Shown: positions 1 to 55,859 of the stretch, in pieces
How positions within the stretch are numbered: the stretch's first letter is position 1
How the letters are laid out: every line of letters begins with the position of its first letter
NCBI GenBank assembly: GCA_964016885.1
Contig: OZ024745.1
Coordinates: forward strand, 40,486,001-40,550,000
Length of the DNA: 64,000 bases
Direction of reading: 5' to 3'
From: Eledone cirrhosa
Lineage: Eukaryota
The notes under the pieces: model-generated
Told to the model about the DNA's origin: nothing
What the model saw: the letters and a program-made list of their open reading frames with translations, nothing else
Database searches by the model: none
Made by a program: the position numbers and the translations under genes

Positions 1-296
1 TTACAACCATACGTAAGATGCTTGGTGGAGGTACCTACATAATTCTCATTAATCCTGGGGCTATTCTTATTGTAAATAGTGTTAGAGAGAGAAAGAGTGC
101 TGCTTTGTGGGTGATTTGTGGTGGGGTTGTATTGTGATTTTGTGTTATGTTGTATTTGTGTTGGTGATTTGGGAGGTTGTGTTTTCCAGGTTGAAGGATT
201 GGATTATTTGTCCTTTTAAAAAGTGCAGTCTTTATTAAATTATGTTGTGGTGGTGTGGTCATATTATTTTTAAATTTATAAATGTTGTAGTTGCTT

Positions 297-658
<362 letters not shown>

Positions 659-1086
659 TAATCCTTCGGGTGAGATTTAGATACGTGTCATCCGTAAATT
701 CGTTTTACTGCAAGTTCGTGAGCAAAGAACTGATCTCTTATTCTCAATATATAAAGGTTGTCCATTCTGCCAGATGAGTCAATCGTTGTTATTGAACAGC
801 ATGTTTTGCCATTAAAGAAGGATGGTGTACAATTCTACGTGCATGCGTACGTCGACAACAGTGTAAATATTTGAATATCACGGACAAAGTGACAAGTGTA
901 AAATTGTAACTGTTTAATGAGTAGCAGATATCATATATAAGTAACGTTTGTCAGCAAACACACTTAACATCTCCATAAAACAAAATATTATTTTGAAAAG
1001 CGTTGAGCCCTCTAGCTTCAGGCTGCTTAACTAAGACTCTACACCTAGGGTAAGGTGTTTGTGAAGTGTTTCTTACATTCTGCTTT

Positions 1087-1151
<65 letters not shown>

Positions 1152-1221
1152 ATGTGCATATGCATGCGGGTATGGGTGTGTGTGGGTGTGTGATTGATTG
1201 TTTGTGTAGAGTGCGTAGCTC

Positions 1222-1440
1222 GGAGGTCATTCCGGGTACAAGCTAATTGAGAGCTATCAGCTCCTATACTATGGGCATGTGGTTCGAATATCTCAGGAAT
1301 GAATGAGTCGCTTGTGAGATTGTAGGGGTAAATCGAACGGGCATGAGAGCCAGGTGCAAATCCCGAGCAAGATGCTTGTATAACATTGATCAGCTTGGCT
1401 TGATTCGCTCGAGGATCCAGCCTGACTGGTACGAAGCGTA

Positions 1441-1441
<1 letters not shown>
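1222..1441 (+). mobile_element. Decayed 3' fragment of an RTE-clade LINE
   Basis: Translates to ..QLLYYGHVVRIS.., resembling the RTE C-terminal L-x-Y/F-GHV-x-R motif; ends at an (AAT)n tract. Confidence 0.5.

Positions 1442-1490
<49 letters not shown>
1442..1490. repeat. (AAT)n microsatellite, 5' flank of Dong-like element 1
   Basis: Direct repeat count. Confidence 0.95.
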
Positions 1491-1491
<1 letters not shown>

Positions 1492-4002
1492 GAACCGCAT
1501 GTTCGACAACAACCAGAAGATGCTGTTTGGACACAGAACCGCATGTTCGACAACAACCAGAAGATGTTGTTTGGACAGCTTGAGGGGAAAGAAAGAGGCA
1601 ACGACTTGATCCCTGGGGCGGAGCAAACTAAAACATTCTGGAGAGGAATATGGGAGCAGGATGTTAGACACAATGCCCAGGCAGGGTGGATTGAGACAGT
1701 ACAGAGGGAGATCGGTGAGCAGGCACAGCAACAGACTGATTTGAGTATCACAGTTGAAACTCTTAAGGGGCAGGCCAAAAAACTAACCAACTGGAAATCA
1801 CCAGGCCCAGATGGTGTGCAGGGGTATTGGATTAAACATTTAACATCCCTCCACCCGAAGCTGACGGCCATGTTCAATGACTGCTTGGTGTCGGGTGAGG
1901 TGCCAGAGTGGTTGACAAAAGGTACCACAGTTCTGATAATGAAAGACCGAATCAAGGGTAATGATGTTACCAACTATAGACCTATCACATGTCTGTCCGT
2001 AATGTGGAAACTGTTGACGAGCATTGTGTCTGAGGAAATCTACCATCACCTCCACACAAACAACTTGTTACCGGACGAACAGAAAGGATGCCGAAAGAAG
2101 TCACGTGGTACAAAGGACCAGTTACTTATTGATAAGATGGTAATGGGGAATTGCAGGAGGAGACACACTGATCTTGCCATGGGATGGATAGACTACAGAA
2201 AGGCATTTGACATGGTGCCTCATTCTTGGATCACAAAAGCCTGGAGATCTTCAGGGTGGCAGATAACATCAGACAGTTGCTGGGCAGGAGTATGGGGTCC
2301 TGGGAGACAGAGATGACATCAACTGGAGTATCCTTGGGAAGCGTGAAGATCAAGAGATGTATCTTCCAGGGAGATAGCCTGTCCCCTCTGTTGTTTGTCC
2401 TTGCCCTGATGCCCTTGACCATTATGCTGCGAAAAGTGAGAGCAGGATACAAGTTGGGAAAGAGAGAGCTTACCATCAATCACCTCCTCTTCATGGACGA
2501 TCTTAAGCTCTTCGGGAAAAGTGAGAAGGAGTTGGATGTGCTTGTTGACACTGTCCGTATTTTCAGCAGTGATATATGTATGCAGTTTGGTATTAGTAAA
2601 TGTGGAGTCATTGTGATGAAGAGGGGTAGGTTTAGCAGAAGTAACGGGATCCAGATACCAACAGGTGAGATGATAGAGGAAATTGACTCTGAGGAAGGAT
2701 ACAAGTATTTGGGCGTTCTGGAGGCTGATGGCATAAAGAACAAAAAAATGAAGGAATTGTTAAGAACTGAATACATTCGGAGAGTAAGGAGCGTATTGAA
2801 GTCACATCTGAACAGCAGAAATGCCATAAGCGCAGTAAATTCCCGAGCTGTGTCTATTATTAGGTACAGTGCGGGAATTCTGAGATGGAATGTTGCTGAA
2901 CAAAAAGAAATGGATAGGAAGACTAGGAAGCTATTGACTATCTACAACATGTTCCACAAGGGGAGTGATGTCGATAGACTCTACCTAAGGAGATCTGAGG
3001 GTGGAAGAGGTCTTATCAGCATAGAGGACTGTGTTCAGATGGAGAAAAACAACCTAAACAAATACGTGACCTATAGTAAGGAGCCAATGCTCAGAACTGT
3101 ACTGAAGGAGGGGACAGTAGGCCAGGGGATGTCCAAGGAGGAAATAACATCAAGGAGGAAGAGCAGCCTTAAGGGCAAATCCCTTCATAGTACCTTCTTT
3201 GAGAAAACTGAATTTAGAGATCCACAGACATGGAACTGGTTGAGAAGAGGAGACCTCAAAAAGGCTACAAAGGAATGCTAATGGCTGCGCAGGAGCAGGC
3301 CCTCAAAATGAAGTGGTTGAAGCACCATATTTACAAGGAGGAGGCTAGCCCACTATGCAGGATCTGTGGAGAGAGAGAGGAGACTGTGGCTCACATTGTG
3401 TCCGAGTGTAAACACCTAGCCCAGACCCACTATAAGGGCTGGAGACACGATGTGATGGGCAGGGTGATCCACTGGCACCTGTGCAAAGTAAACAATTTAC
3501 CACACTCTGAGAAATGGTATGAGCATAGGCCAGAGGCGGTGATGGAGAACAATCAGGTGAAGGTGATGTGGGATTTTAGGATACAGACGGACAAAAAACT
3601 GGAACACAATAGACCTGACCTGGTGGTTGTGGACAAAGAAAAAAGATCGTGCCTGATTGTGGATGTGGCCTGCCCTTTCGACACGAGAGTGCAAGAGAAG
3701 GAGAGGGAGAAAATTAACCGATACTAGGACCTACAGTGGGAGGTGAAAAGGATTTGGAACTGCCATGAAGTCAAAGTGATCCCGATTGTCATAGGCGCAC
3801 TGGGGACTATCTCCAAAAGTTTCCAGGGATGGTTAAAGAAAATCGGCCCCGTCACGCTTTTTGGAACGCTTCAAAAGGCATGCTTGCTTGGAACAGCAAG
3901 AACCCTCCGATACGTCCTGAATATCTGAGGCTGCAGGTAGTGGCTTGATATTCATTCCAACGGACTTTCCAGTTAACCAACATCAATGACTGAGATTCAA
4001 GG
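1491..4002 (+). mobile_element. 5'-truncated R4/Dong-like non-LTR retrotransposon (RT + RLE), element 1
   Basis: RT motifs NYRPITCL, WIDYRKAFD, FQGDSLSP, FMDD, YKYLG; CCHC knuckle CRICGEREETVAHIVSEC; RLE motifs RHD, RPDLVVVD, DVACPFD; short 3'UTR; (AAT)n on both sides. Confidence 0.93.
1543..3928 (+). pseudogene. Disrupted RT-zinc knuckle-RLE ORF of Dong-like element 1
   Basis: Split over ORFs 1543-2316, 2226-3281, 3230-3727 and 3743-3928 by two frameshifts and a TAG at 3725-3727. Confidence 0.9.
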
Positions 4003-4011
4003 AATAACAAC

Positions 4012-4074
<63 letters not shown>
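4003..4074. repeat. (AAT)n microsatellite between Dong-like element 1 and the Tx1 fragment
   Basis: Direct repeat count. Confidence 0.95.
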
Positions 4075-4075
<1 letters not shown>

Positions 4076-4447
4076 TTTTCTTTATTAACCACAAGGGTTC
4101 ACATAAAGTAGACATTAAGGACAGTACAGGACAATACAGGACGGTACAAATGGGCATTTCTGCGTGTAAAAAAACAGAGGTCGAAATAAAATAACAAAGA
4201 AAAATTCCCCAATAGGGGGGAGACTTCCAAGGGACATTTGTGGAGAAAGCCCATTAAAAGACCACAGTGGCCCTGACCACCAGGGCAAGTGCCCTCCCCC
4301 AGTTTTCCACCTTTAATTTACAGACACATACTCAGAGAAGGCCCATTCATTCGGGCCATACTTGCTTCTCTCACCCATCTTTCAACAAAATGCTGGGAAG
4401 AGAGCACTTCCCTCTCTACCCTGATTTTCCTTTTCAAATGAAATTTG

Positions 4448-4448
<1 letters not shown>
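4075..4448 (-). mobile_element. 5'-truncated copy (~374 bp, 3' end) of the Tx1-clade element at 7647-13571
   Basis: Near-identical to 7647-8019; minus strand ends AATAAAGAAAAC then (ATT)n. Confidence 0.92.
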
Positions 4449-4539
<91 letters not shown>

Positions 4540-4583
4540 AAGAAGAAGAAGAAGAAGAAGAAGAAGAAGAAGAAGAAGAAGAA
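4449..4583. repeat. Compound (AAT)n(AAG)n microsatellite
   Basis: Direct repeat count. Confidence 0.95.
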
Positions 4584-7500
4584 ATGAATGAGAATGAACT
4601 TGCCAACTTTAAGGATGAAATTATGATCTAATGGATGAAAATGAAAGAATCTGACATGGGGCAACGAGACACCCTCCCTAAGATCCAGAACTCCAAACAG
4701 AACCAAAAGATAATACACAAGACTAACATAATTCTCAAAAACATTATCATCAAACAACAAACTAAACATTACTGATTTAAATCATCTCTATTATGCATCG
4801 GCTAAAGTCACCACTCACTTATGTGGAGTGCAGATGAAAAAACAAAGGAATTCCCACAAGAAATCTAATTGGCAAGAGAACATCAATCGCCAAATAAACC
4901 TTCTCCGATCTGACATAGAAATTTTAACAAACTATAAAGTAGGTGAACATGTTAAACAAACTAAACTTAGAAAATTGAAAAAAAAGTACAGTATAAAATC
5001 AACAAGTGTCATAGACATGCTGATAGAAATAATCAAGCAAAAAAGTGTCGGCCAAAGCTGCTCGTATAAGGCGCTTTAAAAAACGATCTAGATTCTATAC
5101 GGACAATAATATATTCAAAAACAACCAAAGAAACTTCTACAGAAAAATTGGTAAGTCAACAATAACTGCTAAATCAATACCACCCAAGGAGGAAGTGCAA
5201 GAATTCTGGGAATAGATCTGGGCCGAAGAAAAAGTTCATAACATACATGCCCCATGGATAGACAGACAAATGAAAGATTCAGCTCACCTTGAGGAACAAA
5301 TATGGGAAAATATAACAGTTGAACAGTTGCGCTTGGCTCTAAGAAAAACCAGCAAATGGAAATCCCCAGGAAAAGACAAAATACAAAACTTTTGGATAAA
5401 TGCCTTCACAGAGTCTCATGAGCTGTTAGCCCAACTTTACAATGAAATAGTTAAGGAGCCAGAAAAGATACCATCATGGCTAGTTAACGGCATTACATTC
5501 CTGCTTCCGAAGAATGATGAGACAAACAATCCCAAACATTACAGACCGATAACTTGCTTGACCACAATGTATAAAATTTTAACATCAGTCCTAACTGAAT
5601 ACACATATGACCACCTGATAACAAATGACCTATTTCCCATTGAGCAGAAAGGGTGTAAACAAGGCTCATATGGCTGTAAGGATCAGCTTCTGGTTAACAA
5701 AATGATACTGGAAGATTGTCATAATAGACACAAAAATCTATCGATTGCTTGGATAGATTATAAAAAAGCATTCGATAGTTTGCCACACAGTTGGATTGAA
5801 AAATGTTTAGAGATTTTCAAAATATCCCCCGTTGTCAGGAGGATTTTGTCATTCAGTATGAAGACATGGAAAACGACACTCCTTTTGAATAGTGAAACAA
5901 AATCACTGGAAGCTGGAGAAGTTAATATTAATTGTGGAATTTTTCAGGGTGACTCTTTATCACCGCTTTTATTCTGCATCGCACTTATACCATTAAGTAA
6001 AATGCTCAATGAAACAAAACATGGATATAAAGTCTATGACAAAACCATTAATCACCTGTTCTACATGGATGACCTGAAACTATTTGCAAAAAATGATGAA
6101 CAATTGCAAGGGCTATTATCAACTGTGGAGCAGTTCAGTGATGACATTAAAATGGAGTTTGGACTAGGTAAATGCGCCAAAGCAACGTTCACCAGAGGAA
6201 AGCTGCTGAAGAGTTCAGACATTAATCTTGATCGGGGGAACGTGATAAGAGAACTTGATCAAGAAAAAACTTACAAATATCTAGGTGTTTGTGAAGGAGA
6301 CGGAATCAAGCACTCGACAATGAGGGAAAGGATAAGGAAGGAATGTTACCGCAGAGTAAGAGCAATCTTAATAACGGAATTGAATGCAAGGAATAGGATC
6401 GATGCCATAAACACGCTTGCCATACCAGGGAAATCCAGTGGGTTAATCCAGTTAGACATTGAGTTGAAAACTGCGACAATTGGATTATCTACATATCTAA
6501 GGGAATCACATGATTGGATGATCAAACTCGTTTTGAAACACGAGAGCATCAAAAGATCATATTCCATTACAAAAGATGCACAAAGATACAGTAATGGACT
6601 ACAAATTTCAGAAGTCCCATTTACTGCTGAAATGGAAAACACAGAAAAAGCAAAGCAGGTAAAAGTAACTGCAAAGAAAGAACTGCTACAGAAACTGGCT
6701 AAGAAATGGCAAGAAAAGCCTCTGTATGGAAAATACCCAGAGCGAGCTAACAATCCTGATGTTGACAAAACTTTAACCCATCAGTGGTTGGCATCCTCTG
6801 GACTGAAATCGGAGACTGAAGGACTGATTATATCGGCACAAGATCAGTGTCTGCCAACAAAAAATTACCAAGCCAACATAATAAAAAATGGATGCAGCCC
6901 ATTATGCCGTGTATGCAAAAAACAACCAGAGACCATTGACCATATAATTTCAATGTGCAGTCCTATAGCTCCAACCGAATACCTAAACAGGCATGACAGA
7001 GCTGCACAATACATACATTGGATAATGTGTAAGCATTTTGACCTGCCCCATCAAAAGAATAGGTGGGAGCATCAACCACCTCCCATACTTGAAAAAGATC
7101 ACATCTCAATCTTGTGGAACTTTAGCATCCAAACAGACTGAAAAATAGATGCAAATAGACCTGATATAATATTGAAGGACTTTAAAAAGAGGGTATCCGT
7201 TCCAATAGACAAGAATGTATCTATAAAAACATTTGAAAAATTGAGCAAGTATAAGGACCTGGAGATAGAAATTGGAAAAATGTGGAAATTGAGAACTAAA
7301 ACAATACCAGTGGTTGTAGGCGCTCTGGGAATGATACCTAAGGGGGCTAATGATTACTTATCGCAAATCCCAGGAAACCCGCGTATAGGAGAAATACAAA
7401 AGATAGTACTAATGGGAACTGCCCATATACTAAGGAAGATTCTGTCAATATAAGTACATCACAAGTTTAAACACTAAAGATGCATGTGTGTGTATGTATG

Positions 7501-7596
7501 TTCTTTCTTGAAAATGGCGGACCTTGTTGTCTCTTGAGGTCACTGGTTGTGACTTGGTGATAACTCGTATGAACATAAAGCAAGATAAATGCAACT

Positions 7597-7598
<2 letters not shown>
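4584..7598 (+). mobile_element. 5'-truncated R4/Dong-like retrotransposon, element 2 (different family from element 1)
   Basis: RT motifs HYRPITCL, WIDYKKAFD, FQGDSLSP, YMDD; CCHC CRVCKKQPETIDHIISMC; RHD; C-terminus KIVLMGTAHILRKILSI; 3'UTR then (AAT)n. Confidence 0.93.
4828..7453 (+). pseudogene. Disrupted RT-RLE ORF of Dong-like element 2
   Basis: ORFs 4828-5079, 5270-7141 (623 aa) and 7172-7453; apparent internal deletion near 6430 (LAIP joined to GKSSGL) relative to element 1. Confidence 0.88.

Positions 7599-7646
<48 letters not shown>
7599..7646. repeat. (AAT)n microsatellite between Dong-like element 2 and Tx1
   Basis: Direct repeat count. Confidence 0.95.
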
Positions 7647-7647
<1 letters not shown>

Positions 7648-7888
7648 TTTTCTTTATTAACCACAAGGGTTTACATAAAGTAGACATTAAGGACAGTACA
7701 GGACAATACAGGACGGTACAAATGGGCATTTCTGCGTGTAAAAAACAGAGGATGAAATAAAATAACAAAGAAAAATTCCCCAATAGGGGGGAGACTTCCA
7801 AGGGACATTTGTGGAGAAAGCCCATTAAAAGACCACAGTGGCCCTGACCACCAGGGCAAGTGCCCTCTCCCAGTTTTCCACCTTTAAT

Positions 7889-10800
7889 TTACAGACACAT
7901 ACTCAGAGAAGGCCCATTCATTCGGGCCATACTTGCTTCTCTCACCCATCTTTCAATAAAATGCTGGGAAGAGAGCACTTCCCTCTCTACCCTGATTTTC
8001 CTTTTCAAATGAAATTTGAAGAATTTAATCAGGACATCACCGAAGAGGTAAGTGCTCGTCTTCAGCCCTTTCAAACGTGTCCACCATACTATCTCTTTCG
8101 CCATGGCCACCATACTATCTCTTTCGCCATGGCCACCAGACAGATAAAAACTGCCTGCCCTTCCCGGCTAAAGGAAGAGGGCGGGGCATTCCTCACGATG
8201 GAGTCAGCTGATAGCTGGATCCGTCCTACACGTGACAGCAGGTGTTCGACATAAACCCACAAGTCAGCAATGCTCGGACACTGGACGAGTGCGTGCAGGA
8301 CGGTTTCGTCGCCCTGTGCGCATCTCGGACATGCCCGGCTGACGGCACCTCCATGCCTGTAAAGTTTATCCCGAACTGGCAAATCACCCCGGTAGCACTG
8401 CCAGGCCAGGGATTTCTGGAAGATGTCCATAGGCCCCGGCCCGAAAGTCCTTCCGAAGAGATTGGCTAGTTGATTTTCGTCGACGCCTAGAGTCTCTCCA
8501 AGTACGTCGTCACTCTTCCCCTCCACTAATCCCCTATAGAACGCCAAGGTGGAGTTTCCAGCGATCACATTGCCCGATTGGTCGAGGGCTGTGAGCGCCT
8601 GAAGACATTCCAGTCTCCAAGCGCTCCCTCTTGGTCTTCGCTTGACCCAGGACTGCAGCTCCGTCAAGGAGACGAGCTGGGGAAAAACGCGTCTAGCAAA
8701 CGGCGACCACACCTGATCACCGTCGAGGAAGAGGTGGAGATGTCGTAGCCTGAGCGTGTGTCTGCGCATCATCAGCCACGGCATGCCCAGCCCTCCACGT
8801 AGCGGGTGTTGACAGCAGATGGACCGCCTGACCATCGGAGCGCGTCCCTTCCACAAGAAGCGAAAGAGCAAACGCTCCAGCGCAGTCGGGCGGGGCTTAG
8901 GACAAGGTACGACGGTCAGGCGGTAGTAGATGACCGACGCGATGTACGCGTTAGCCACCTCTGCCCGACCTTTCAGGGATAGCTTCCTCTCAGCCCATTT
9001 CTGGGTGAGAGGAGCCACCCTGCTCGTCACCTCGTCCCAGTTTTTGTCCGTCTGGAGGTCTGGACCGAACCAGACCCCTAGCAATTTAACCGGTCAGTCC
9101 GTCCAGCGCCCGACGACGCTGTTGGATGGCATGGACCTGCCTCTCCAGTTGCCGAGCTGCAGGCCCACTGACTTTTCCTGGTTGATAATTGCTCCTGTCA
9201 CCGCTTCGTATTCTCTTAGTGTAGTGCCGATCGCCTCGATGTGTTTGGCGTTCGACACCACTACGGTGACATCGTCGGCATATGCTGACACGGATCTTCC
9301 GCATCCTAGTTCGCGCGGGACCCCCCTCAACGTCTCCAGTTTGTGCAGTAATGGCTCGAGAGTCAATTCGTACAATAGGGACGAGAGGGGACATCTTTGG
9401 CGGACCGAGCGCATGATGTTGAACGGTTCCGAAAGGTGACCGTTCACTCTCACTACAGAGCAGATGTCGCTGTGCATGGCAGCGATCCAGCCTCTGAAGA
9501 CGGGCCCAAAGCCAGCCGCCCTCAGGACTGCCGCTAGGTAACGATGGTCGACCCTAACGAAGGCTTTCGACTGATCTAAATTGATCAAAGACTCACCCGT
9601 GCCAGCTTCCCTAGCTACCCTCTCTACGATGTATCGCATGAGGTGGAGGTTGTCGTGGATGGATCTGTCTGGAATGGTGCATGTCTGCGCCTCTCCCACC
9701 AGACCACCAACGACAAGCGCCAACCTCTTTGCTAGCACCTTGGGCAAAATCTTGAACTCTGTGTTTAGCAGAGATATGGGCCTAAAATTATCTATGTTAT
9801 CCCCCTTGTTCGGATCCTTTCTCAGCAGCGCCACCGCTCCTCGGCTCACAGAGCTGGGAATTCTCCCGTTCTGTTGCCAGTTGCAGTAGACGTCCACCAA
9901 GAGGCCTCCGAACAAGTCTGGCATTTGTACGTAAAGTTCATAGGGCAGACCATCCAAACCAGGCGATTTACCCCTTGTGCAACTAGTCATTGCATCCCGT
10001 ACTTCAGCGGTTGTTATCGGCTTTTCGCAACACTCCGCCTCAGTGGCCGAAAGCCGCGGCAGTCCGTCGAGGTAGACACTAAAGTCTATCCCTCGATTCG
10101 GTAGGGCCACTGCCCCCGAACAGTTGAGCGAAGCGTTGCTGAAAAGCTTCACACATTTGCCCGGGATCGAGTAGCATGCGCCCGTCGTGGTCCACCAAAG
10201 ACCGGATCGTGGCTTTGTTGCCACGACGCGCCTCCGCCACTCGGGCCCATTGAACTGCTTTCGTGCCCTCGTGTCTGAGAGCACGCACCCTAGCTCTGAC
10301 AACGCAGCCTTCGTGCTTTGCATTGAAGTATTGGTCAAGGGCCAATTTCGCCGCAAGTACGTCGGTCGCGATGCCTTTGCTAAGCGCCTCATCTAATTTT
10401 CTAACTAGTTCTCCCTCTGCTCTATTTTTCTCTATTGCTAAAGTCTTACTAAACCTAATGGACTCTATTCTAATTGCTCTTTTCAGAGCAAACCACCACT
10501 TGTTGTTGACGATGGCCCCCGTCAACGCCCGCTTAACTAGTTCGCTAATCCGGTCTCTGTAGGCCTTGCGCGCTGGCAAGGACGCATTTAGCTTCCAGTA
10601 GCCGGGTCCTCGCCTATGAAGCCTATCTAAGTCAAGCACACAGATCACGTATTGGTGGTCCGTGTAGCTGACTATCTTGAATTGTGGACAGCCTATGCTA
10701 GACCTATCTATTTCCCTACAAAATACTCTATCTAGATATGATCTGGATGACCTCATGCGATTTGTCCAAGTCCACATTGGTACATTCGGGAAATCCATTC

Positions 10801-11335
10801 GGTACCTGTCAGACAGTTCAAAACGTCTGAGCAGGTTGGTGAGACTCTTGCACCCTCCTTCGCTATCCAGTAATCCCACACAATCCCAGCGTGCATCTAA
10901 GATCCCTTTCCAGTCGCCCACTAACACTAAAGAGCGGGACGTTCCAAGAAAGGTCTCCAGACGCCGGAAGAAATCAGGCCGCCCTGCTCCTGTCGGGGCA
11001 TAGACGGCCACTGACTTGAAAGCTTGCCCGTCTCCGCTGGTCACGTCCAGCACCACCAACTTACCTTCTGGGTCCAGGAAGATGGCCCGTATGGCAAGAT
11101 CCAAACCTCTTCGAAAAAGCACAGAAACTCCTCCCCCCGATCCCGGACGGCTGGGAGATGCGTACACATCGTAGCCGCCGAAGATCGGTGCGAAAGCCTG
11201 TGCTTCGGAGATTCTGGTCTCGCTGATGGCCACTACATCTATGTTTAGTGACCTGAGGTCGTTGAGCAGGTGGCCCTGCTTCCATGACGACCCCAAGCCA
11301 CGCGCATTTATGCTGCCTATTCTGAGTGAGGTCAT
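7889..11335 (-). pseudogene. Tx1 ORF2 (APE endonuclease + RT + C-terminal CCHC), frameshifted
   Basis: MTSLRIGSINARGL, ISETR, VGDW, SYLDRVF, YTDH (APE); KSPGLDG, NFRPISLLN, DQSKAF, YADD (RT); CPRC..ETVLHALVQC; split over four ORFs. Confidence 0.92.
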
Positions 11336-11369
11336 GTTGGAAAGGAGTGGAAAAGATGGGAAAGACCAC

Positions 11370-13071
11370 TTACCTTACTTCTCGTAGGGGAAGGACGGTT
11401 TTTCCATCCTTTTCACTGCTTGTGGCCTCCTCAGGAAGGATGTCCTTATAAATCCTCCTGGAGAGTGCTTGTCGGAAGTCTCCGATGTCTTTGGGGAATT
11501 TTTGTTTTAGTGTCATGTACGTTTTCTGCGTGATGCGAGTGATTTGTATGTGTGGAGGTGGTGTGAATTTTGGGGTTGTTTTTCTGTGATGCTGGTGTTG
11601 TGTTGGATGTAGTGTAATAATTGCTTGTTGTTCAAATTTAATGCTGTGTAGTGTGTATCGTTTTGGTTGTTTTGTTTTGTTTGCGTTTGTTGTGGGTTTG
11701 TTTCTGTTTCGCATTTTGGTGACTTTTGTGGTGTAGGTGATGGTGGTGTTGGAGTTAATAATGGTGATGGTGTTGGTGTTTGGGTTGATGGGGTTGGTGA
11801 TGCTGGTGTGGATGGTGGCATATCTGTCCTAACTTTTTTGTTTCTTAGTTTATTTGTTTCCCTCTGTATTTTGTTTTTGGAGGGGGAAGGAAGAGAATTT
11901 TTTCTTTTTTGGTTTCTTTTTTTTTTTCCGGATATCGTTTCCCACTCCTCGTCGTCACAATCTGTCTCCAGTTGTGATAGGCCGGGGAGTGGAAAATCCT
12001 CCACAGGCGTTAGTTTTGATTGTGGCGTGGTGGATGGTGTAGGCGCTGGTGCTAGTTCTGAAGCGTTGGGTGGTGGTGGTGTTGGTTTTGCTGGTGGTGG
12101 TAGTGGTGTTGGTTTTGCTACTGTTGCTGGGGTTGTTGCTGTTATAGTTGCTTCTGTTGTTGCTGCTACAGTTGTTGCTGCCATCTCTGCTACTGGTGGT
12201 GTTGATGTTTGTGTCACTGGGGTGGGTAGGAGAGGTGGCCTCAACCTTTTAGCCTGAGGGCAGAAAGCCCTTAGGTGGGTTCCTTCACCACAAACGACAC
12301 ACCTAGGTCTTCTGCCCTCGACAATTACAGTGAGGTGGCTGCCGTCAGTGAGGTCTATTACCTCTGGGATCTCCTCAATGCTTTTTTGGTCTGCTTGGAT
12401 CAGGAGCTCCATCCCAGATCCGGACCAGTTCTCCTGCTTTTCTTTTGCTATTGCTATTATTTTTGTGTTGGCTTCGATGCCGGCGAGGACGGCCGCTATT
12501 AGCCAGGGAATTTCGATGGCCGGTGGAACTTGGGTCACCCTGATCTTTACGAGTCTCTGGCCACAATAGCTTGGGACGAGTGTGAAGTCGTCACTTCTTA
12601 ATGTGGCCATGGAATGTTCTCTAGCCTCCTCTAGTGTTTCAAAGAACACGTCCACGGTTCCATACTTCTGCCCATGTCTGATGTGGGTTTTTCTTGCCCA
12701 AACATGTCCCAAAGCTTTTTGGATTTGGGACTCGGATGCCCGTTCCACTCGTTGCGATTTTACATTTATCGTTCGATACCACACGGTGCATAGGCGCCGA
12801 TGCTCCATTTTATTAGGTGAGGGTGGGGGGTGAGGCTGACCCTGTACCCATCTTTCTTTACCATTTGTTTGGCATTTTCTAAATCCTCCTGAGTTACCGT
12901 AAATGCTTCGAACTGTTTTGCTACTATTGCAAAACTGAGGGTCGTTTTTATAATGTCATTGTTGTTGTTGTTGCTATCGTTATTTGTGTTAATATTAATT
13001 TTAGTTTCAGTTGTGGTGGTGGTGACGTCAGTCGTCTTTGGTGGGGAAGAGTCCATTTTGCTTGATTTCAT
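11370..13071 (-). pseudogene. Tx1 ORF1 (gag-like, CCHC zinc knuckle, Pro/Thr-rich tail), frameshifted
   Basis: ORFs 12766-13071, 11513-12808 and 11370-11714; CVVCGEGTHLRAFC; basic KKKRNQKRK segment. Confidence 0.85.
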
Positions 13072-13571
13072 TTCGACATCACGAGTTAATTAATTTTTTT
13101 CTTCTTTTGTTTCTGTTGACGCGTTGGTGGTGGTGGGGGTGGTGGTTGCCGCGGTGGTGGTGGGTGGTGGAGGCTTTAACACCTGCAGTCATTGGTAATG
13201 GCGGAAAATGAATGTCTGCCTGAGACAAATTTAAAATATTGCTAGTGCTTATATTTTTTTTAGTGTTGGCAAACGTAGTAACATTTAAAATGGTGGTGTC
13301 GGTGTGAGGTGTTAATTTGTGAGGAAGGCTTTCAGCTGCTTGGTGCAGAGGTGAATTAGCCATTTTTTTCAAAGAAATTTTTTGATAATAATAAAGGTTT
13401 AAATTTTGGGCACAAGGCCCCAATCTTTTTGGGTGTCCTTTTCGGAAAACAATGTATGTGCGCTTATATATGGTTAACAATAAAAATTTTCCATAAATGG
13501 CAATTTTTAACAAACGGAAATAACAAACCTTTGCGGAGCTCACGATGATACGATTTACTACGTAGGTCGCC

Positions 13572-13643
<72 letters not shown>

Positions 13644-13830
13644 AAGAAGAAGAAGAAGAAGAAGAAGAAGAAGAAGAAGAAGAATATATTTTACAGAAAT
13701 ACGGGGGAGTCGATTTCAGAAGAAGAAGAAGAAGAAGAAGAAGAAGAAGAAGAAGAAGAAGAAGATATTTTACAGAAATACGGGGGAGTCGATTTCAGAA
13801 GAAGAAGAAGAAGATGAATAAGAAGAAGCA
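13572..13830. repeat. (AAT)n(AAG)n microsatellite with a duplicated ~30-bp interruption
   Basis: tattttacagaaatacgggggagtcgatttc occurs twice inside the (AAG)n tract. Confidence 0.9.
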
Positions 13831-14287
13831 GCTATGAAGCACAAATAGTCTTGACTTCTAAATACTACATGTTTAAATCGTCAAGCCTATATGTTCAATG
13901 TTGGAAAACCTTTGGTGGCATCCTGATTAGAGTCAGTCTAATGTTATATATCAATATGGAGATCTTTATTGCGATGGATTGGAGAATCATTATTACAATA
14001 CTTACCCCCGCTTTTTATGTTGAATGTTCCTCTTCAGCTGCGGTAGACAAACATAAAAAAAAACACTCCAATACTGGAGTCAACATACTCAAATAAACCC
14101 AGTCTCCTTTTGGGTGAAAATATTTATACGAAGCTGAGTTATTTCTAATTTTCTTTAAATTTTCCCCATCTCCTTCCGTTCAATCAGTTGTCTGTCTGCC
14201 AGTCCCTCATTCCATCCAATCCTCTGTAAGGCATGTTGAATCACAACCCTCCTCACCTTAGATCGTAACATAATTCCTCAGAAAGTG

Positions 14288-14315
14288 GGAGAGAGAGAGA
14301 GAGATAGAGAGAAAG

Positions 14316-14393
<78 letters not shown>

Positions 14394-14412
14394 CGGGGGC
14401 ATAGAGAGAGAA
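14288..14412. repeat. (GA)n/(GATA)n microsatellite
   Basis: Direct repeat count. Confidence 0.92.
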
Positions 14413-16409
14413 AGAGGTGTAGGAGATCGAATCAAAAGAAAGAAAGATAGAAACAACCCAAGTACTGTTACTTCTTCAACCTCGAAAGAATGATTACGAC
14501 GAGATTTGAGGTCTTAGCTCCTGAACAGATATTTGGTGTTCTAATGGTTCCGATTTGATATGTTTAATTTCGTTAGGGCTCTATCGTTGATATTAATCTA
14601 AATGTTAATGTTTGTTCATGCTCTTCTCATTAAAATATTATATAGTACCAATACGTAAGTATTAAATGTAAATTAATGTTTGTGGGAGAGAAAAAGAAGC
14701 TAATGGATAAGGAGAACAAAAGGTATGAATAATCACAAGATTATCGCAAAAGCAAGAAAAGAAACAAAAGACAGATCCGCGATCAATATTGTTGTATGAG
14801 GCCATTTATGAAGGATATCTAAGTAGCGAGGTCAGGATATAAATATTTCAGATGAAATAGTATTAAGTGGCTGCTAATCAGGTTGTCGATCAACAAGACA
14901 TCACGGGGGCTGCCTTGATCTGTTATTTATTAGCAGTATCCAATTATATAGCAGATCTAATTTGTATATTACTTAGACTAATCCCATTCATCGAAATCTT
15001 TAGAAAATGTATAAACGTTAAGATCGTGACATCAATAGTGCAGTTTTCCAACACAAATAGACTGCTCGGCCAATTGCCAGCATCAACACTGTTCACTATT
15101 ATAGTTATTGTAGTAATATGAAAAGTGATAATTTTCGAGTAATGGTAAGCTGGATTTCTTCATCACAATATATTTGGTTATATTACAAACATACTGTCCG
15201 TCTACTGTCATTTTTAAAACATTTGTCAGATTTACCTAGACAATAAGTAGCTTTCTTTCCTCGAAAGATCAGAAAGTTACAAGATTAATCCTCTGAAATT
15301 TACAATTAAACTTATATAGAATTTTGCAATCGTAAATCTAATGATTTAGTTATAGTAATAATTGACTCACGAATAAGAAGTACAAACATACGTCTCCGGA
15401 GATTAATTGGCTTATTTCTTTGATACGAATTTAATTTCATTAGAAGAACATATATCATTTAAAATCTACAATGATTGTAAGTTATATAAACTATTGTGTT
15501 ATCCAGTAAGGTGCAATACAATTATAAAGTGATGATGAGGGATCCGTCATCAGTTTCGACACGTGCTTATTCAGTTTTCCGATCAAGTGAAAATCCTGTC
15601 ATTCATATATGTGTACATATATCAGTCTTCCACAGAGATGTGTGTCCTTGACTAAATCCCAATATTGAATCAGCCGGACAAAATATGTGACAAGACAAGA
15701 CCTTTGAATTATGAATATAATCTGCCATCGTAATCTTACCAATATAATTCGGTCACCTCGACGCTTTGGTAAGGACACCTGAAATTCCAAGCAGTGTGAT
15801 CGGATCGGAACATAGAAGTCCTGATTGAAGAGTCAGGTCTTCTTGCAAAGAAATATGAAGGGAATAAATTCCTGAGTGTTACTTCTTTCGGTATATTTTC
15901 AAATGGAAGCATAGCTAAAAATGGCTTCAAAGTGAGCTATGATTGAAAGATCTACCAATTATGTGTGTGAAGCATGGTAATATATATTAATATTCCATGC
16001 CTCCAAAACTTCAGAATATCAAGGAGAAACAATTCAAGAAGGGTATCTAACTAGAATCCATTCCTTAGATAAAAGACCACATATTTACAATGATGGGAAT
16101 TTTGGATTATATTGACACCAGTAACGGATGACACATTATATTATTAACGCTGTGAGAATTAAGATTAATATCGTCGGTAGTTCTATCTGAAATCAGGAAT
16201 CAAGAGGTATATATGAATACCGAAAAGATAATTTCTGGTTGCCTTCAGGATTCTGCCACAACAATGCGCTGAATTAATTAAAGATATCAGCTTACCTATA
16301 TGTTGTGATTGTGTTCTACGGAGCGACATTTTTGGATGACAATGCTGGATTCAGATCTAATGTACAAAGCGTATTACTCAGAGATTAGTTTGTTCGGCTT
16401 ATGATCACA

Positions 16410-16660
16410 AGACTATGTGATCCATTCCCGTTTGAGCAATTTGCATTTGAGCATAACATATTTCATGCTGTTTCAGTCCAATGAACTTGCAAATATGAGT
16501 TGTATTCCAAACGATCACCCATTCACGTCGTATATAATGTTCAGAATTACGTTTAGCGACGTGCCTGTGGAATGCTCAGCCAATTGCACCATAATTTCAC
16601 GACCAGGCTTTTGTGTTGATAAAAAAATCTGGAACACACATCGTCAGAAGCGGAGGCTTT
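16410..16660 (+). mobile_element. Decayed SINE of a second family (related pieces at ~28180-28390 and ~36200-36315)
   Basis: Shared motif tgtgga.tgctcagcca.ttgca...aatttcacga seen in degenerate form at three places in the window. Confidence 0.5.
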
Positions 16661-16794
16661 CCAGCACATACATGGAAACGCAAACCTGTAGAGACACACA
16701 CCCAATCCTACGTCTGGTGTAAATATTTCTTACAAAATGCAGTATTGAATTAGAACGGATATGTGTCGCGTAATTCAAATATTTTGCAATTTAG

Positions 16795-16975
16795 AGGTAG
16801 GGGAAAGTCGATGAAATCGACCTCAGCGCGTGACTGGTATTTTATTTTATCCAACCCATAAGGATGAAAGGCAAAACTAATCGCGGCAGGATTTGAACTC
16901 AGAACGTAAATGGCCTTAAATCTATGCCACGACATTGGGTGTCTGACGCTCCACCGATACGGCCTATTCCCACCT
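16795..16975 (-). mobile_element. tRNA-derived SINE (octopus OK/OR-like family), decayed
   Basis: B-box-like GAGTTCAAATCC and the shared body tttgcctttcatcctt...aaataaaataccag on the minus strand. Confidence 0.75.
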
Positions 16976-17396
16976 TTATATATTTTGTAAGAGGTAACTA
17001 AACAAGCAGATAGTACATTTTTAACATTAAGTCAATTAGAATATTTCAGGATGTGTATTATTTTCGGAGTACGTTTTTCTCCTTCTCTGATTTGAGATGT
17101 CTGAGTGTCAAATGCATCGGTAACATCAATACCATGCCAAATCCAAACGTGTTTCTCTGAATTCCATATTATTTCATTCATTGAAACATATTTTGTAATA
17201 GAATATCCGTATATTTTTGTAACGGACTGTTAGACGAATTGCTATTTCGTATCATCATTAATTTCTAAATTTACTTTGTCGTTTTTAACATTGTATTTTA
17301 TTTGATAACTACGAGACCGGGGTACCATCTCAGTACTTTAGAAAAAGTATAACACGGGGCTTTAGCCAAGTATATGGAATGTGTATTATATAGTGC

Positions 17397-17683
17397 GTGG
17401 AGGCACGTGGCCTAGTGGTAAGAGTGTTGGACTTACGATCATAATGCCGTGGGCTCGATTCCTGGGTTGCGTGTTGTGTTCTTGAGCAAAACACTTCATT
17501 TCATGTTGCTCCAGTATACTCAGCTGAAAATGAGTACCAGCAATAGATGGAGGTTTAACCCTGTGGTGGACTGGCGGCCTGTCCAGGGGGATGTCTTGCA
17601 CTCTCAGTCTCTTCACGCCATGAAACCGGGATAAGCACCGGCCAAATGAGCCTTCTGGCTTAAGACAGACTTTAGACTTAGAC
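17397..17683 (+). mobile_element. Well-preserved tRNA-head SINE with CORE-like centre and 10-bp TSD
   Basis: A box TGGCCTAGTGG, B box GGCTCGATTCC, CORE-like gtgttcttgagcaaaacactt, (TTAGAC)n tail; TSD tatatagtgc at 17387-17396 and 17684-17693. Confidence 0.88.
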
Positions 17684-19148
17684 TATATAGTGCTACTATT
17701 CCGCATTTATGTACATATAAATGGAGAACGAGTCAGTATTTTGAAAACTGCTATGAATAGAAGAAAGGAAGCTACAGAACAAATGATGACATACTGGACA
17801 ATGTTTAGCTACTTCTAATTGTTTAATTAATGTGGGTGAATCATGCTGAGATTTGGCGTTAAATTCCATCTCTCTAGCGTCGATATAATAAGCACCAGTC
17901 AAATGCTAGACTGGATTAATTGAACTTCAACCCCAACTCACAATTATAAATAATTATAATAATGAGAGATACAACTAAATGTTGATAATTCTTTATTTAC
18001 AGTCATTATCGAAAGCACCACTATGTTACTGTTGTACAATGACTAATTAACGTGAAATCCTAATTGCTATGAGACAAATGATAGTTAATATATATAGATA
18101 AATACAATTAATAAATAATGTAGATTGTAAGTCAAAAATAATGAAACAATTAATTGCTCTAAGAGTGCTTCAGATAAATAGACACTCTTATATTTTTGAA
18201 AAGAGGAGGAGGAGAGAGTCAAGGTGATCATGAATGACACAAACATGATAATTCGTTACTCCTTGCATAAAATATTATTAGCCACTCTCTACGAAGGCCT
18301 TAATAATATATTTAAACAGGTTTCATGAATCATAACATAGTTATGAAAGATTAGAGTGCATCCATACTTTAAAATTAAAATAAGTGGAGTTGTGCAATGT
18401 GGCATATTCTTCTCCTCATATTCTATTCAACATGAATAAGCAGCATTACGCATGTAATTCTAAGTTATCTCTCTTCAATAAAAACGAATCTTGCTCTATG
18501 TATACTTCTAACGGCATACGTCAGTAACATAGGTATTCAATCTACAATGGATGTCGATTTCTTTCAATCATAGTGGTTCATAACACTCATATATAGGAAT
18601 AACATAGTACATGGCACGTTTTCATATGTTCAGTGAATATATTCGTGCTGAGGGTGCGAATGTAGGTGTGATATCCATATTATAATCAAAGATATATATA
18701 GATGAATTCGATATCTAATATGTGTTCGAAAATGATATAATATGAGAGGGTCTGTGTTAAAAGATTATAACGAAGGAAAGTTATATAAATAAGTTATATT
18801 TGGACGATCGAGTATGGAAATTATAATAATATAATACCGTGTGCACCAGAGTTAATGGATGTATTTTGAAGAATCATCTACCAAGGTACAATCGAATAGA
18901 GTTTGATTTTTATGCAAACGTCTGATTCACGTCATCAAAGGTGGATGTAATAAAAATAGTTATCAGTTTCTTCGAGCCAAAGGATTTTCTTTTGTCAGTA
19001 GTCTCAAAACACATTACTTTAAGCTTTTAAAGGGAAATACATAGTTAGAAAGTCACAGATCCATTAGTATTAAGAAACTTATTCCGGTAATAACTGCGAA
19101 TGGTAACAAACGCAATGTGATGAACAAACTTGGAGGAATATGCCAATA

Positions 19149-19990
19149 TTAGGCGTCACCATCCATTTCATTGTTTTTTGTGTAGATAACATTGCTTTTG
19201 TTATTAAAATGCAGTGTTGTTGCGTGTAATAGGTGTACCCTATCTGCAATTGTGTTTTCAGATACAGAAATTTCATTATATATGGACTCATCCACAAAGT
19301 CAAAGTCAGTGAGATCTTTAGAGGGGTGCATTGAGCTCATGCGGGGTTCGATGGTTATACCTTTGTTATTGATTTTGTTAATTGAGAGTCTCAGGGCGTA
19401 GTCTAGTGCAATGTTAAAGAAGAATGGCAAGAGTGTCACATTGCAGCCCTCCTGCTGTGATGTCAAAGAACTCTGTGATGGGTGATGATAGTGCACTTGT
19501 GTTGGGATACAGAGCCTTAATTGCTTCCAAAAGTCTTCCTATGATGCAAAATAAGTGGAGAATTACAAACAGAATATCTCTGTTTATGCTGTCAAGAGCG
19601 TTTCTGAAGTCAACAAAATCTAGAACCATTCTGTTTGAGTTTCTCATCTCTTTCACTACACTTCTCAAGGCCTAAATCTGTGCAATAGTAGATCTACCAC
19701 GTTTAAAACCATTTTGGTTGATGCGAAAGATTGGATCAACATTTGGAACTCTACGGTGGAGCATTCGCTTCTTGTAGATCTTGGCAGCAATGGTTATAAG
19801 TGATGTTCCTCGGTAGATTTTGGGGGAGATGAGAGGTCGCACTTTGGGGAGGAATTATGCTGCTTTTAGTCAACTTATTGGAGAAGTTGTGTTGCTTAAG
19901 GTGTCGTTGCACATTGATAATAGGACTGACGTTAGGTTTGGGTCTTTCCAAATTATACTGGGTTATTATCGAGACTGAGCGATTCTTTGC
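19149..19990 (-). mobile_element. Decayed RTE-clade LINE, RT core
   Basis: Degenerate RT motifs NQNGFKRGRST, FVDFRNALDSI, GGLQCDTLA, FNIALDYAL, DFDFVD. Confidence 0.8.
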
Positions 19991-20720
19991 TGTCAAGACT
20001 GAGTGATATGTTTACTATGCGGTTGCCATTTGACATTGCACGTCTTACAGATTGTCTACAAAATGCGCAACCACTTTTGACATCACTCCAGGAAGATTCC
20101 ACTTACTTTAGCCTTCATCTCAGGGACGGTAGAACAGACTACATATCAAACTGCACATCAAAGCAATCAACGGCAGTGATATTAAGCAAGTCGAGGATTT
20201 CAAGGATCATGGACTCTTAGAAGTATTTTGCCACGAGAAAGTTCCAAGCATGGTCAGTTTAGCAACAAGATGCATCAAGTTTGGCGCTCAAATTTTTCTA
20301 ACCACACCAAATTAAGACTCTTCCAATTAACAATTCACTTGGACACTTTCCTGGAAACAACAAAAACGCCTTGATGGCACCTACACTCGCCTGCTTCGAC
20401 GCATTCAGAATTTTTTTTTCTGGTGACACCTGACTTTGAAAGAAATATATGCCGGCCTCCCACGCATAACTGTCGTTGTATGTAAAAGGAGATTAAGATT
20501 TGTTGGCTACTGCCATCGTACCACCTATGAGGCTGTGTCTCCATTACTGCTTTGGAAACCACAAGCAGACACTACTAAGAGGTGGCGCAAGCTCTCCTAT
20601 CCTGACGTCATCTCCAGAGATTCTGGTATTGAAATCCAAGATTTGGCAGCAGAAATGAACGACAGGCCCACGTGGAGATCAATTGTTGAGTCAATTTCGG
20701 CTGAGGCAGCCGGATGATGA
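19987..20720 (+). mobile_element. Decayed RTE-clade LINE, 3' part
   Basis: DIARL...AQPLL after the catalytic motif; RRLRFVGYCHR...LLLWKP...MNDRPTWRSIV; ends TGATGAT. Confidence 0.8.
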
Positions 20721-27770: not shown

Positions 27771-27933
27771 TGTTTCTACTTTTGGCACAAGGCCAGCAAT
27801 TATTCCAGTGCATTACTGGTACTTTATTTTATCGACCCCGTAAGGATGAAAGGCAAAGTTAACCTCGGCGGAATTTGAACTCAGAATGGCAAGGGCCGTA
27901 ACTCTATGCGTCAAAGCATGTAGTCCGACTCTC
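27771..27933 (-). mobile_element. OK/OR-like SINE with TSD tatgaataat
   Basis: Matches the window SINE consensus; direct repeat at 27761-27770 and 27934-27943. Confidence 0.85.
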
Positions 27934-29830: not shown

Positions 29831-30395
29831 GTTTGTCTTCACTATTCACATTCTGGTTATTTCTAGTTCTAGATCTTTTCTTGATTTCCTTGGTAGATAC
29901 ATTGTCGCTGTGAATAAAGAGGAATACGGATATGTGATGATCGATATCACTTGACCGTGTCATTCTAGAATGGCGGGGACAGCAATCACGTATAATAATA
30001 GAAAAATTACATAGTCTTAAATATAAATTACAGAGGATGTTGTATTTCCACAAATTATCCCAGTTGAAAGGAGAGTTCAATGAAGTGTGGCAAAATGTTT
30101 GTATTATTATAAAGGTATTTGATATACATCCAACTAAATATCGGTAGAACCAAAACGAAATACTGATAAAGTATGAGAAAAACTACTAATTAAAGCTCAA
30201 TTCCAGGGATGACGGGTTGGAGAACAGTCGATCACATCAGCTGTAGTATATGACTGGTAATATATTTATTCGATGAAAGATAACCTGCAGTAAATTTGAA
30301 CTTTGGATATACAGAAGCCGTATCACAAATCATTCGTCCAAAATTTCAAATGATTTGTCTTATAGGTGCAATGGATTACCAGAATCATTATAATA

Positions 30396-30768
30396 ATTGT
30401 TTCTACTTTTGGCACAAAGTCAGCAATTATCCCAGTGCGTTACTGGTGCTTTATTCTATCGACCCCGTAAAGACGAAAGGTAAAGGTAACCTCGGCGGGA
30501 TTTGAATTCAAGTCAAAAAGAGCCGTAACTCTGCAAAGCATGGCGTCCGACCCTCTACCATAACTGATAATCCAGCTAATCATTATAATAATTGTTTCTA
30601 ATTTTAGTACAAGGCCAGCAATTAACCAGTGCATTACTGGTACTTTATTTTATCGACCCCGTAAGGATGAAGGGCAAAGTTTACCTCGGCGGGATTCGAA
30701 ATCAGAATGGCAAGGGCCGTAACTCTATGCGTCAAAGCATGGCGTCCGACCCTCTACCGATACTGCCA
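30396..30768 (-). mobile_element. Two tandem OK/OR-like SINE copies
   Basis: Two successive matches to the window SINE consensus (~30396-30575 and ~30590-30768). Confidence 0.85.
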
Positions 30769-35061: not shown

Positions 35062-35226
35062 TGGTAGTATCGGTAGAGGGTCGGACAACATGCTTTGTAG
35101 CACAGAGTTACGCCCCTTTCTGATCTGAGTTCAAATCCTGCAGAGGTTAACTTTGCCATTCATCCTAACGGAGTCGATAATGCACTGGGTGATTGCTGGC
35201 CTTGTGCCAAAAGTAGAAACAGTTAT
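35062..35226 (+). mobile_element. OK/OR-like SINE
   Basis: gagttcaaatcc B box; 3' end gctggccttgtgccaaaagtagaaac. Confidence 0.85.
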
Positions 35227-41328: not shown

Positions 41329-41349
41329 TCATCAAAAATCAGTTATTAT

Positions 41350-55854: not shown

Positions 55855-55859
<5 letters not shown>

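Follow-up and report, generated by a model that had tools for sequence, protein, structure and literature searches.

The question raised by this locus is how four non-LTR retrotransposons, representing three families, came to be chained in one microsatellite. The window is the whole stretch of Eledone cirrhosa DNA analysed here, 64 kb in length. The chain (1442-13683; Table 1) comprises two Dong/R4 elements on the plus strand and two L1-group, Tx1-like elements on the minus strand, and very probably arose by four independent insertions in a single (AAT)n tract, targeted by both classes from opposite strands. The spacers consist solely of (AAT)n or (AAT)n(AAG)n, with no unique DNA, and none of the elements is inserted inside another; in order, strands and spacers the chain was as described in the first-pass annotation. 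All four copies are defective (stops, frameshifts or truncation). The LINE remnant on the left flank, presumably RTE-like going by its motif, is possibly the first source of the tract, which is speculation. A 79-bp local tandem duplication (13639-13828) lies beyond the right end. Chance was excluded as the source of the repeat-joined chain, because (AAT)3 or (ATT)3 was present in just 60 of 5,135 45-bp windows (1.2%) from the rest of the 64 kb. No ribozyme was found with Rfam in positions 1-20,000; its six matches there failed to reach the gathering score, and all of them lay in or next to simple repeats.

Table 1. Features of the chain and its left flank (positions in the window).
Feature	Position	Strand	Remark
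Old degenerate LINE remnant, left flank	1267..1421	+	old copies in L152 and L156 are about 70% identical
(AAT)16.7, left end of tract	1442..1491	+	
Dong1, 5′-truncated R4/Dong element (RT, CCHC, RLE)	1492..4011	+	
(AAT)21, tail to tail between Dong1 3′ end and Tx fragment 3′ end	4012..4074	+	
Tx-like family 3′ fragment, 373 bp	4075..4447	-	98.4% to full copy
Compound tract (AAT)21(AAG)24.7	4448..4583	+	(AAG)n side adjoins truncated 5′ end of Dong2
Dong2, second R4/Dong family, 5′-truncated	4584..7597	+	
(TAA)16, tail to tail between Dong2 3′ end and full Tx 3′ end	7598..7646	+	
Full-length L1-group, Tx1-like LINE, 5,925 bp	7647..13571	-	
(AAT)14.7(AAG)23, right end of tract	13572..13683	+	then local tandem duplication and unique DNA

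Pfam searches detected RVT_1 in Dong1, Dong2 and the Tx1-like family (Tx), and Exo_endo_phos in Tx alone. In alignments both Dongs have a CCHC knuckle towards the C-terminus and, after it, RHD, RPD and D..K motifs, which we take to be those of a restriction-like endonuclease (RLE). A natural Dong copy of 1,141 aa (L141) was likewise positive for RVT_1 and negative for Exo_endo_phos in Pfam, and the solved structures most related to the Dong protein are R2 proteins. The features that define R4/Dong were found: one ORF in which RT precedes a CCHC knuckle and an RLE, no APE, and a (TAA)n target in sense orientation, the last from the flank counts of both families. Dong1 starts near position 2,050 of a 4,522-bp copy, has a frame broken by frameshifts plus one stop and a 44-bp duplication (1491-1577) at its 5′ end, and is by identity the youngest of the chain (nearest fetched copy 98.8%). 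Dong2, whose family shares 40% amino-acid identity with that of Dong1, starts at position 1,836 of a 4,995-bp copy, has a broken frame and is missing about 150 bp internally near 6430; its 5′ junction meets (AAG)n, which overlaps the element's internal sequence by 5 bases. An N-terminal Myb/SANT domain gave no Pfam hit at E 0.01 in Dong; the divergent domain of this kind in the R4/Dong clade was found by profile-profile search (PMC7998251).

The full Tx copy has an ORF1 (~11513-12955) with a CCHC knuckle, presumably consistent with Tx1, and a broken ORF2 (~8089-11336) that carries APE, RT and zf-RVT. In the ORF2 of another copy (L131) Exo_endo_phos, RVT_1 and zf-RVT were identified with Pfam, and the best PDB match of Tx ORF2 was L1 ORF2p (E 2e-48, residues 14-865), with R2 at only 6e-20. 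The hallmarks of the L1 group were present (two ORFs; an ORF2 with APE at its N-terminus, RT, and a zinc motif at its C-terminus, nearest to L1 ORF2p), and membership of the L1 group with APE is established. The narrower Tx1 label of the first-pass annotation is likely; none of the homologs bears a Tx1 name, the nearest named being from Argonauta hians (72%), followed by turtle and medaka proteins. Among recently active LINEs of Octopus vulgaris, L1-Tx1 is the sole L1-group entry in the accessible part of the report (PMC13282606). The 3′ end of the full copy has a small hairpin and AATAAA immediately before (ATT)n; the stability of 3′-end hairpins was no greater than that of shuffles. An abundant SINE has the same 5-base loop as the Tx 3′ tail, with compensatory stem pairs; the one SINE end in the window folded differently, and the hairpin did not exceed shuffles in stability.

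Flanks and orientation were tabulated for the three families outside their own loci in the window, each search contributing its best 30 loci out of many candidates, so that the sample is one of young copies; as proposed in the first-pass annotation, 5′ flanks were mostly repeat and polarity was strict. The 5′ end was next to (AAT)n in 25 of 27 visible Dong1 copies (24 distinct start points; two without) and in 18 of 24 visible Dong2 copies (23 distinct start points; six without), and the 3′ end was next to (AAT)n at 29/29 Dong1 copies and next to repeat at 29/29 Dong2 copies. Full-length Tx copies adjoined (ATT)n at the 5′ end (29/29) and repeat at the 3′ end (28/29), counts well above the >20% of flanks of one type by which target specificity is recognized in PMC4494074. 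Truncated Tx 5′ ends were next to repeat in seven of nine cases and without it in two. The 5′ end of a control RTE-like LINE was next to repeat in 0/10 visible copies. The (TAA)n flanks described for the chain hold for it generally but not for the 5′ end of Dong2, and Dong 5′ junctions in (AAG)n recur elsewhere (L098, L101). A (TC)n or (TTC)n target of the Kibi/Koshi type was not found for Tx, and (TTC)n was ruled out: (ATT)n abuts the junction and (TTC)n lies just beyond it in a few loci.

Neighbours across a tract were scored at 116 loci, in which some junctions were possibly counted twice. Dong-Tx neighbours were on opposite strands in 54/54 cases, Dong-Dong neighbours on the same strand in 43/44 (the exception being a 5′ inversion) and Tx-Tx neighbours on the same strand in 11/11; at 87 of 116 anchored ends another library element lay within 140 bp, a figure derived from the ends with no neighbour, since the D2 class of that tally takes in SINE pieces. 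Dong1-Tx tail-to-tail junctions were present at 11/29 Tx 3′ ends, and chains of like grammar with differing truncation points in many of 40 10-kb regions. The SINE had the polarity of Tx (17/17 and 23/23).

An RTE-like LINE bears a (TTA)n tract in its 3′ UTR and thereby provides a known empty site. Dong1 was inserted in this tract 29 times in antisense and never in sense, Tx 11 times in sense and never in antisense (Fisher p 4e-10, the four search patterns of this 2x2 test using differing anchors and gap ranges). A fifth pattern, from the RTE tail to the 5′ end of full-length TxA, found 0, yet such junctions are carried by L300 and L303, and the search patterns therefore miss cases. The RTE sequence resumes on the far side of the insertions. 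The earlier proposal that RLE and APE elements converged on one microsatellite with opposite polarity was supported genome-wide by the repeat 5′ flanks, the opposite pairs and this split.

Duplicated non-repeat markers were seen in five of 15 Dong1 single insertions read (none visible in the other 10), and markers flanking the Tx insertions in L248 and L307 were duplicated; target DNA was lost at some sites (L245, L272, L276, L282, L283 and L299). SINE duplications often start with ATTA. Tracts on the 5′ side of 15 Dong insertions had a median of 15 units, and empty RTE-borne tracts (30 copies) a median of 7 (range 2-12). RTE tails with at least 14 units numbered 171; among the first 30 examined 24 were empty, mostly of one subfamily, and a need for new repeat synthesis at Dong 5′ junctions, suggested by the two medians, was thus not supported. 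Preference for long tracts fits the tract lengths as well as new repeat synthesis does. The first-pass annotation had each insertion regenerating its target. This stands in the weak sense, with tract on both sides, target-site duplications and close neighbours at most anchored ends; the strong sense, a net gain of repeat with every insertion, was not demonstrated when tested. Tract remains on either side of each insertion, and chains therefore grow.

Insertion with no active targeting, by elements that carry their own repeat tails, enter AT-rich sites and last in repeat-rich places where they do no harm, is very improbable and already largely refuted. Every 3′ tract could indeed be a tail, and the insertion sites of the related SINE are short and of ATTAT type, just 6-7 of 30 5′ flanks having (ATT)3; tails cannot, however, account for the 5′ flanks of full-length Tx, Dong1 and Dong2 against those of the control LINE and the background rate, nor can survival account for the consistently opposite Dong-Tx pairs or for the split within one inherited tract. 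Much the same low standing is given to composite travel, by which read-through transduction or template jumping would copy whole chains not built in place. The frequent Dong1-Tx tail-to-tail junctions would suit it, and the repeated spacers at tandem TxB copies could be transductions, but partners and truncation points vary from locus to locus, template jumping on sense RNA cannot give opposite-strand neighbours, and RTE sequence picks up again past the insertions.

Scarcely less improbable is a local rearrangement or misassembly in which pieces were joined by duplication or recombination between repeat tracts. It would draw on the likeness and identical 3′ junction of the two Tx copies (98.4%), on the two occurrences of (AAT)n(AAG)n and on tandem TxB units with repeated spacers of 100-250 bp elsewhere. 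The junctions were also not verified in the contig pieces listed (one sample's short contigs, others RAD-seq): 0/24 bridged an element-to-element junction or spanned the chain, so that the reads neither confirm nor refute the assembly. Against it, Dong1 and Dong2 are distinct families, and chains of the same grammar with varied truncation points recur. The Tx fragment and the full copy have no private variant in common, and both have nearer relatives elsewhere (99.2%); the fragment as a local duplicate of the full copy was ruled out, and from its variants it is best regarded as an independent insertion.

Four separate, targeted insertions are supported by repeat at both ends genome-wide, strict polarity, varied truncation, and target-site duplications and deletions. 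Under target-primed reverse transcription cDNA synthesis would start from the nicked strand, which would be (TTA)n for the Dong proteins and (TAA)n for the Tx-like protein, the nick probably falling at a T-A step, since full-length Tx junctions end in TATT at the 5′ side and begin with ATTA at the 3′ side (counts of junction phase include loci fetched twice). Each insertion would split the tract, usually duplicate about 10-17 bp and add the tail of the element, and landing tracts would multiply, the next element settling beside the previous one. For polarity, control by the endonuclease, assisted by the tail, is somewhat favoured over pairing of the RNA repeat tail with the nicked strand. For the inner (AAG)n, duplication of target by Dong2 is the most likely origin, at about an even chance; a slipped remnant of the GAA-rich 5′ end of Dong itself is less probable, as is, to a similar degree, an origin from two pre-existing compound tracts. 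It is conceivable, though rather doubtful, that four members form a repeat ecosystem, in which the RTE-like LINE would seed (TTA)n, the Tx1-like LINE and a SINE mobilised by it would use one strand and Dong the other, RNA-tail pairing would set polarity and the preference for long tracts, and insertions would lengthen the tract.

The (TAA)n target and REL endonuclease of Dong are published (PMC7998251), and Dong, DongAg, DongBg and an ostracod Dong, known in molluscs, resemble the Dongs described here in these traits and in a single ORF with RT (PMC3812793, PMC7998251, accessible parts). Five recently active Dong-R4 families are listed for O. vulgaris (PMC13282606, Table 1). Unlike the known Dongs, two families here share a tract with an APE lineage, and 5′ junctions sometimes lie in (AAG)n. 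Kibi (TC)n, Koshi (TTC)n and crocodilian Tx1 (TTCC)n/(TTTC)n are, like Tx, microsatellite-specific L1-group APE elements (PMC4494074), whereas the target here is (ATT)n, unlisted for Tx1 in the accessible part of that paper, and is shared with an RLE clade. SINEU is trans-mobilised by target-specific Tx1 (PMC4494074); the Tx1-like LINE is a candidate for mobilisation partner of the abundant SINE. Keno (APE, Tx1) and Utopia (RLE) in U2 snRNA genes show parallel APE/RLE evolution for one site, but they share the 3′ flank and so the orientation, their target is a low-copy gene, and mixed chains are not described in the available text (PMC4640811). In Bombyx, SART and TRAS are two families that enter the telomeric simple repeat in opposite orientations and form arrays, but both belong to the R1 clade of APE elements and are telomeric (PMC10088271), whereas here unrelated endonucleases meet in dispersed tracts. 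Four components are each published singly (the (TAA)n target of Dong, targeting of microsatellites by Tx1, convergence of APE and RLE elements, and opposite polarity); their combination, a candidate partner SINE, and an (AAT)n/(ATT)n target shared by a Tx1-like kind were not found in the literature searched.

The system offers a natural paired test of how endonucleases of two unrelated types recognise a single three-base repeat, each from its own strand, and its resources include many young copies, natural copies with open frames and an inherited empty site from which duplication lengths can be read. A 2026 repeat paper on O. vulgaris maps hotspots, with no target analysis in its accessible part (PMC13282606); the targeting described here offers a concrete cause of some of the clustering of LINEs in the genomes of octopods. 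The (AAT)n tracts of such genomes are insertion hotspots, relevant to markers and assembly.

The four-element chain that the first-pass annotation had described was borne out in the assembled sequence, with strands and spacers as claimed. RT was present and APE absent in Dong1 and Dong2 (two R4/Dong families), and the full minus-strand Tx contained ORF1 plus ORF2, the latter encoding APE, RT and zf-RVT. All four elements were broken; compared with single natural copies, the large Tx was full length, Dong1 started at about position 2,050 of 4,522 bp and Dong2 at position 1,836 of 4,995 bp. The claimed (TAA)n flanks held for the chain generally and not for the 5' end of Dong2, which joins (AAG)n, instead of (AAT)n, via a 5-base overlap.

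The best matches among solved structures were L1 ORF2p for an open-frame Tx copy (L131, 1,130 aa) and R2 proteins for an open-frame Dong1 copy (L141, 1,141 aa). The Dong families were 40% identical, and in the alignment each ended in a CCHC knuckle with motifs of the RLE type. The nearest named relative of the Tx RT was a protein of Argonauta hians (72%), which points to an octopod as the probable host. Tx is a likely member of the Tx1 clade rather than L1; the name Tx1 was absent from all Tx homologues retrieved in protein homologue searches. Compared with the main Tx family (TxA), TxB was 95% alike in ORF2 with a different 5' half, suggesting an origin through a 5' swap, and TxC was about 75% alike. 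Tandem TxB copies flanked by repeated spacers of 100-250 bp, each spacer extending between successive (ATT)n tracts, were seen at L298, L301, L302, L305 and L306; the spacers would represent either long target duplications or tandem amplification. L245 showed a deletion that looks like the reciprocal event.

Features of the window and of loci retrieved from the rest of the genome (L numbers)
Feature	Location	Strand	Remarks
Old LINE remnant	1267-1421		immediately left of the tract; a relative at L156 ends in (GAA)50, abutted by a Dong2
Dong1	1492-4011	+	
Tx fragment	4075-4447	-	
Dong2	4584-7597	+	
Full Tx	7647-13571	-	
79-bp tandem duplication	13639-13828		includes (AAG)n; right edge of chain
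SINE, 186 bp, abundant	16786-16983, 27747-27944, 30369-30776, 35057-35236, 41116-41548, 44621-44817; L161-L190		
Degenerate Dong-like RT fragment	38238-38627		37% to Dong1 protein; away from any (AAT)n tract
468-bp unit, x2.9	54514-55861		99% identity between repeats
TxB and TxC	L157:3690-9712; L241		both with (ATT)n
ORF1 frames of three Tx copies with weak MBD matches	L131:2113-3702, L157:3855-5993, L129:1704-3701		Pfam, sub-threshold, E 0.005-0.008
RTE-like LINE	L191-L220; L136:4735-6880		young; RT and C2H2 fingers; 3' UTR of successive microsatellites, (TTA)n among them; terminus (ATGT)n

The genome (3.0 Gb) was queried with element ends alone, the flanks never forming part of the query. 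The best 30 loci per search were taken from 1,676, 1,752, 118 and 103 candidates, 40 loci were lengthened to 10 kb, and the window's own four loci were left out of the counts. Among the best-30 loci, (ATT)n adjoined full-length Tx 5' ends in 29/29 cases and Tx 3' ends in 28/29, and (AAT)n adjoined all 3' ends of Dong1 and Dong2 (29/29 each) and their visible 5' ends in 25/27 and 18/24 cases, respectively. Truncated Tx 5' ends at the retrieved loci were flanked by (ATT)n in 7/9. The start points were nearly all distinct (Dong1, 24/27; Dong2, 23/24; truncated Tx, 9/9), which fits separate insertions. For comparison, repeat-flanked 5' ends numbered 0/10 for an unrelated RTE-like LINE (from L136) and 6-7/30 for the SINE, and 60 of the 5,135 background pieces (45 bp, elsewhere in the window) held (AAT)3 or (ATT)3. 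A further library element lay at most 140 bp beyond 87 of the 116 anchored ends. Pairs facing across a tract were on opposite strands when Dong met Tx (54/54) and on the same strand for Tx-Tx (11/11) and Dong-Dong (43/44, the lone exception being an inverted internal piece). The tabulation of flanks and orientation called for by the first-pass annotation returned mostly repeat flanks and strict polarity at the sampled loci.

Since a (TTA)n tract is situated within the 3' UTR of the RTE-like LINE, copies of this element show the pre-insertion sequence; 7 of 30 carried Tx, Dong or SINE within the 3' region. In whole-genome pattern counts, which miss cases (one pattern expected to match gave 0), the 3' end of Dong1 was antisense to the RTE tract in 29 cases and sense in 0, and that of Tx was sense in 11 and antisense in 0 (Fisher p 4e-10, with patterns that differ in sensitivity). 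These counts and the facing pairs uphold the proposed convergence of RLE and APE elements on one microsatellite with opposite polarity, and the shared-tract, opposite-strand pattern is well supported as real and genome-wide. The 29 Dong sites and L243 were retrieved; 15 of the 30, each holding one insertion with an RTE anchor on either side, were used for duplications, the other 15 having multiple insertions, a lost anchor or an extent past the retrieved stretch. A non-TTA marker was found on both sides in 5/15 Dong insertions (duplications of about 10-17 bp), and Tx duplications measured 14-17 bp at L248 and L307. Target was lost at Tx sites L245 and L299, and about 100 bp at four Dong sites. 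Several truncated RTE-like LINEs had (GTAT)n or (TA)n as 5' flanks, hinting at a repeat preference of their own.

Each insertion had also been proposed to regenerate its target. Target tract does persist to either side of an insertion, with duplication in some cases, and the median tract of 15 units on the Dong 5' side, vs 7 in empty RTE copies, suggested new repeat synthesis. Such synthesis is unneeded: 171 RTE tails had at least 14 units, and of the first 30 examined 24 were empty, 4 Dong-filled and 2 Tx-filled. A preference for long tracts is sufficient to explain the longer Dong-side tracts.

Within the chain, the Tx fragment and the full Tx had no common private variant (against 64 other copies) and each had 99.2% relatives elsewhere, so they represent separate events. 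By nearest-copy identity Dong1 (98.8%) is the youngest element, followed by Dong2 (about 97-97.7%) and the full Tx (96.8-97.4%). For the doubled (AAT)n(AAG)n the preferred reading is a duplication made by Dong2, because Dong 5' flanks copy downstream target at the RTE-tract sites and at L076; the full Tx would then have inserted in the 3' tract of Dong2. Against this, the duplication needed would be long, and the Dong 5' end is itself GAA-rich: a full-length Dong2 at L153 has a long (GAA)n/(GAC)n array on its 5' end (about 6500-6830), apparently slipped from that GAA-rich start, and another Dong2, at L156, adjoins pure (GAA)n.

Dong is known to have a (TAA)n target and a REL endonuclease (PMC7998251, PMC3812793), and the targets given for Tx1 families are (TC)n, (TTC)n, (TTCC)n and (TTTC)n (PMC4494074). 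One U2 site is reached convergently by APE and RLE elements (PMC4640811), and SART and TRAS occupy telomeric repeats in opposite orientations (PMC10088271). In octopuses, Dong-R4 and L1-Tx1 are described as active or expanded, without target analysis in the parts consulted (PMC13282606, PMC8967140, PMC9115989); the portion seen of PMC11481361 mentions neither Tx1 nor octopus. The literature searched yielded no (ATT)n-specific Tx1 and no tract common to Dong and Tx1; one may be described in subscription journals, in supplements, in the notes to Repbase or by Kojima and Fujiwara (2004). Every ingredient has a precedent, and the combination appears undescribed.

In target-primed reverse transcription, cDNA synthesis is primed by the strand that was nicked, and this strand ends up antisense to the element. 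Priming would accordingly be on the (TTA)n strand for Dong and on the (TAA)n strand for Tx. The polarity may come from endonucleases nicking opposite strands; alternatively, the repeat tail of each RNA may choose the strand. A polyadenylation-like AATAAA sits 6 bases ahead of the Tx repeat, and Tx RNA could therefore carry a few repeat units. The SINE is a candidate Tx partner. Its polarity was that of Tx in 17/17 cases and opposite to Dong in 23/23, and its 3' stem-loop resembles the Tx 3' end, with a common 5-base loop and compensatory stem changes (second pair C-G in 56/56 Tx and G-C in 94/102 SINE copies; third pair A-T in 55/56 TxA/B and G-C in 95/102 SINE copies). SINE insertion sites were short and of ATTA type, the brief duplications often beginning ATTA; if the partnership is real, the Tx protein would need no long tract.
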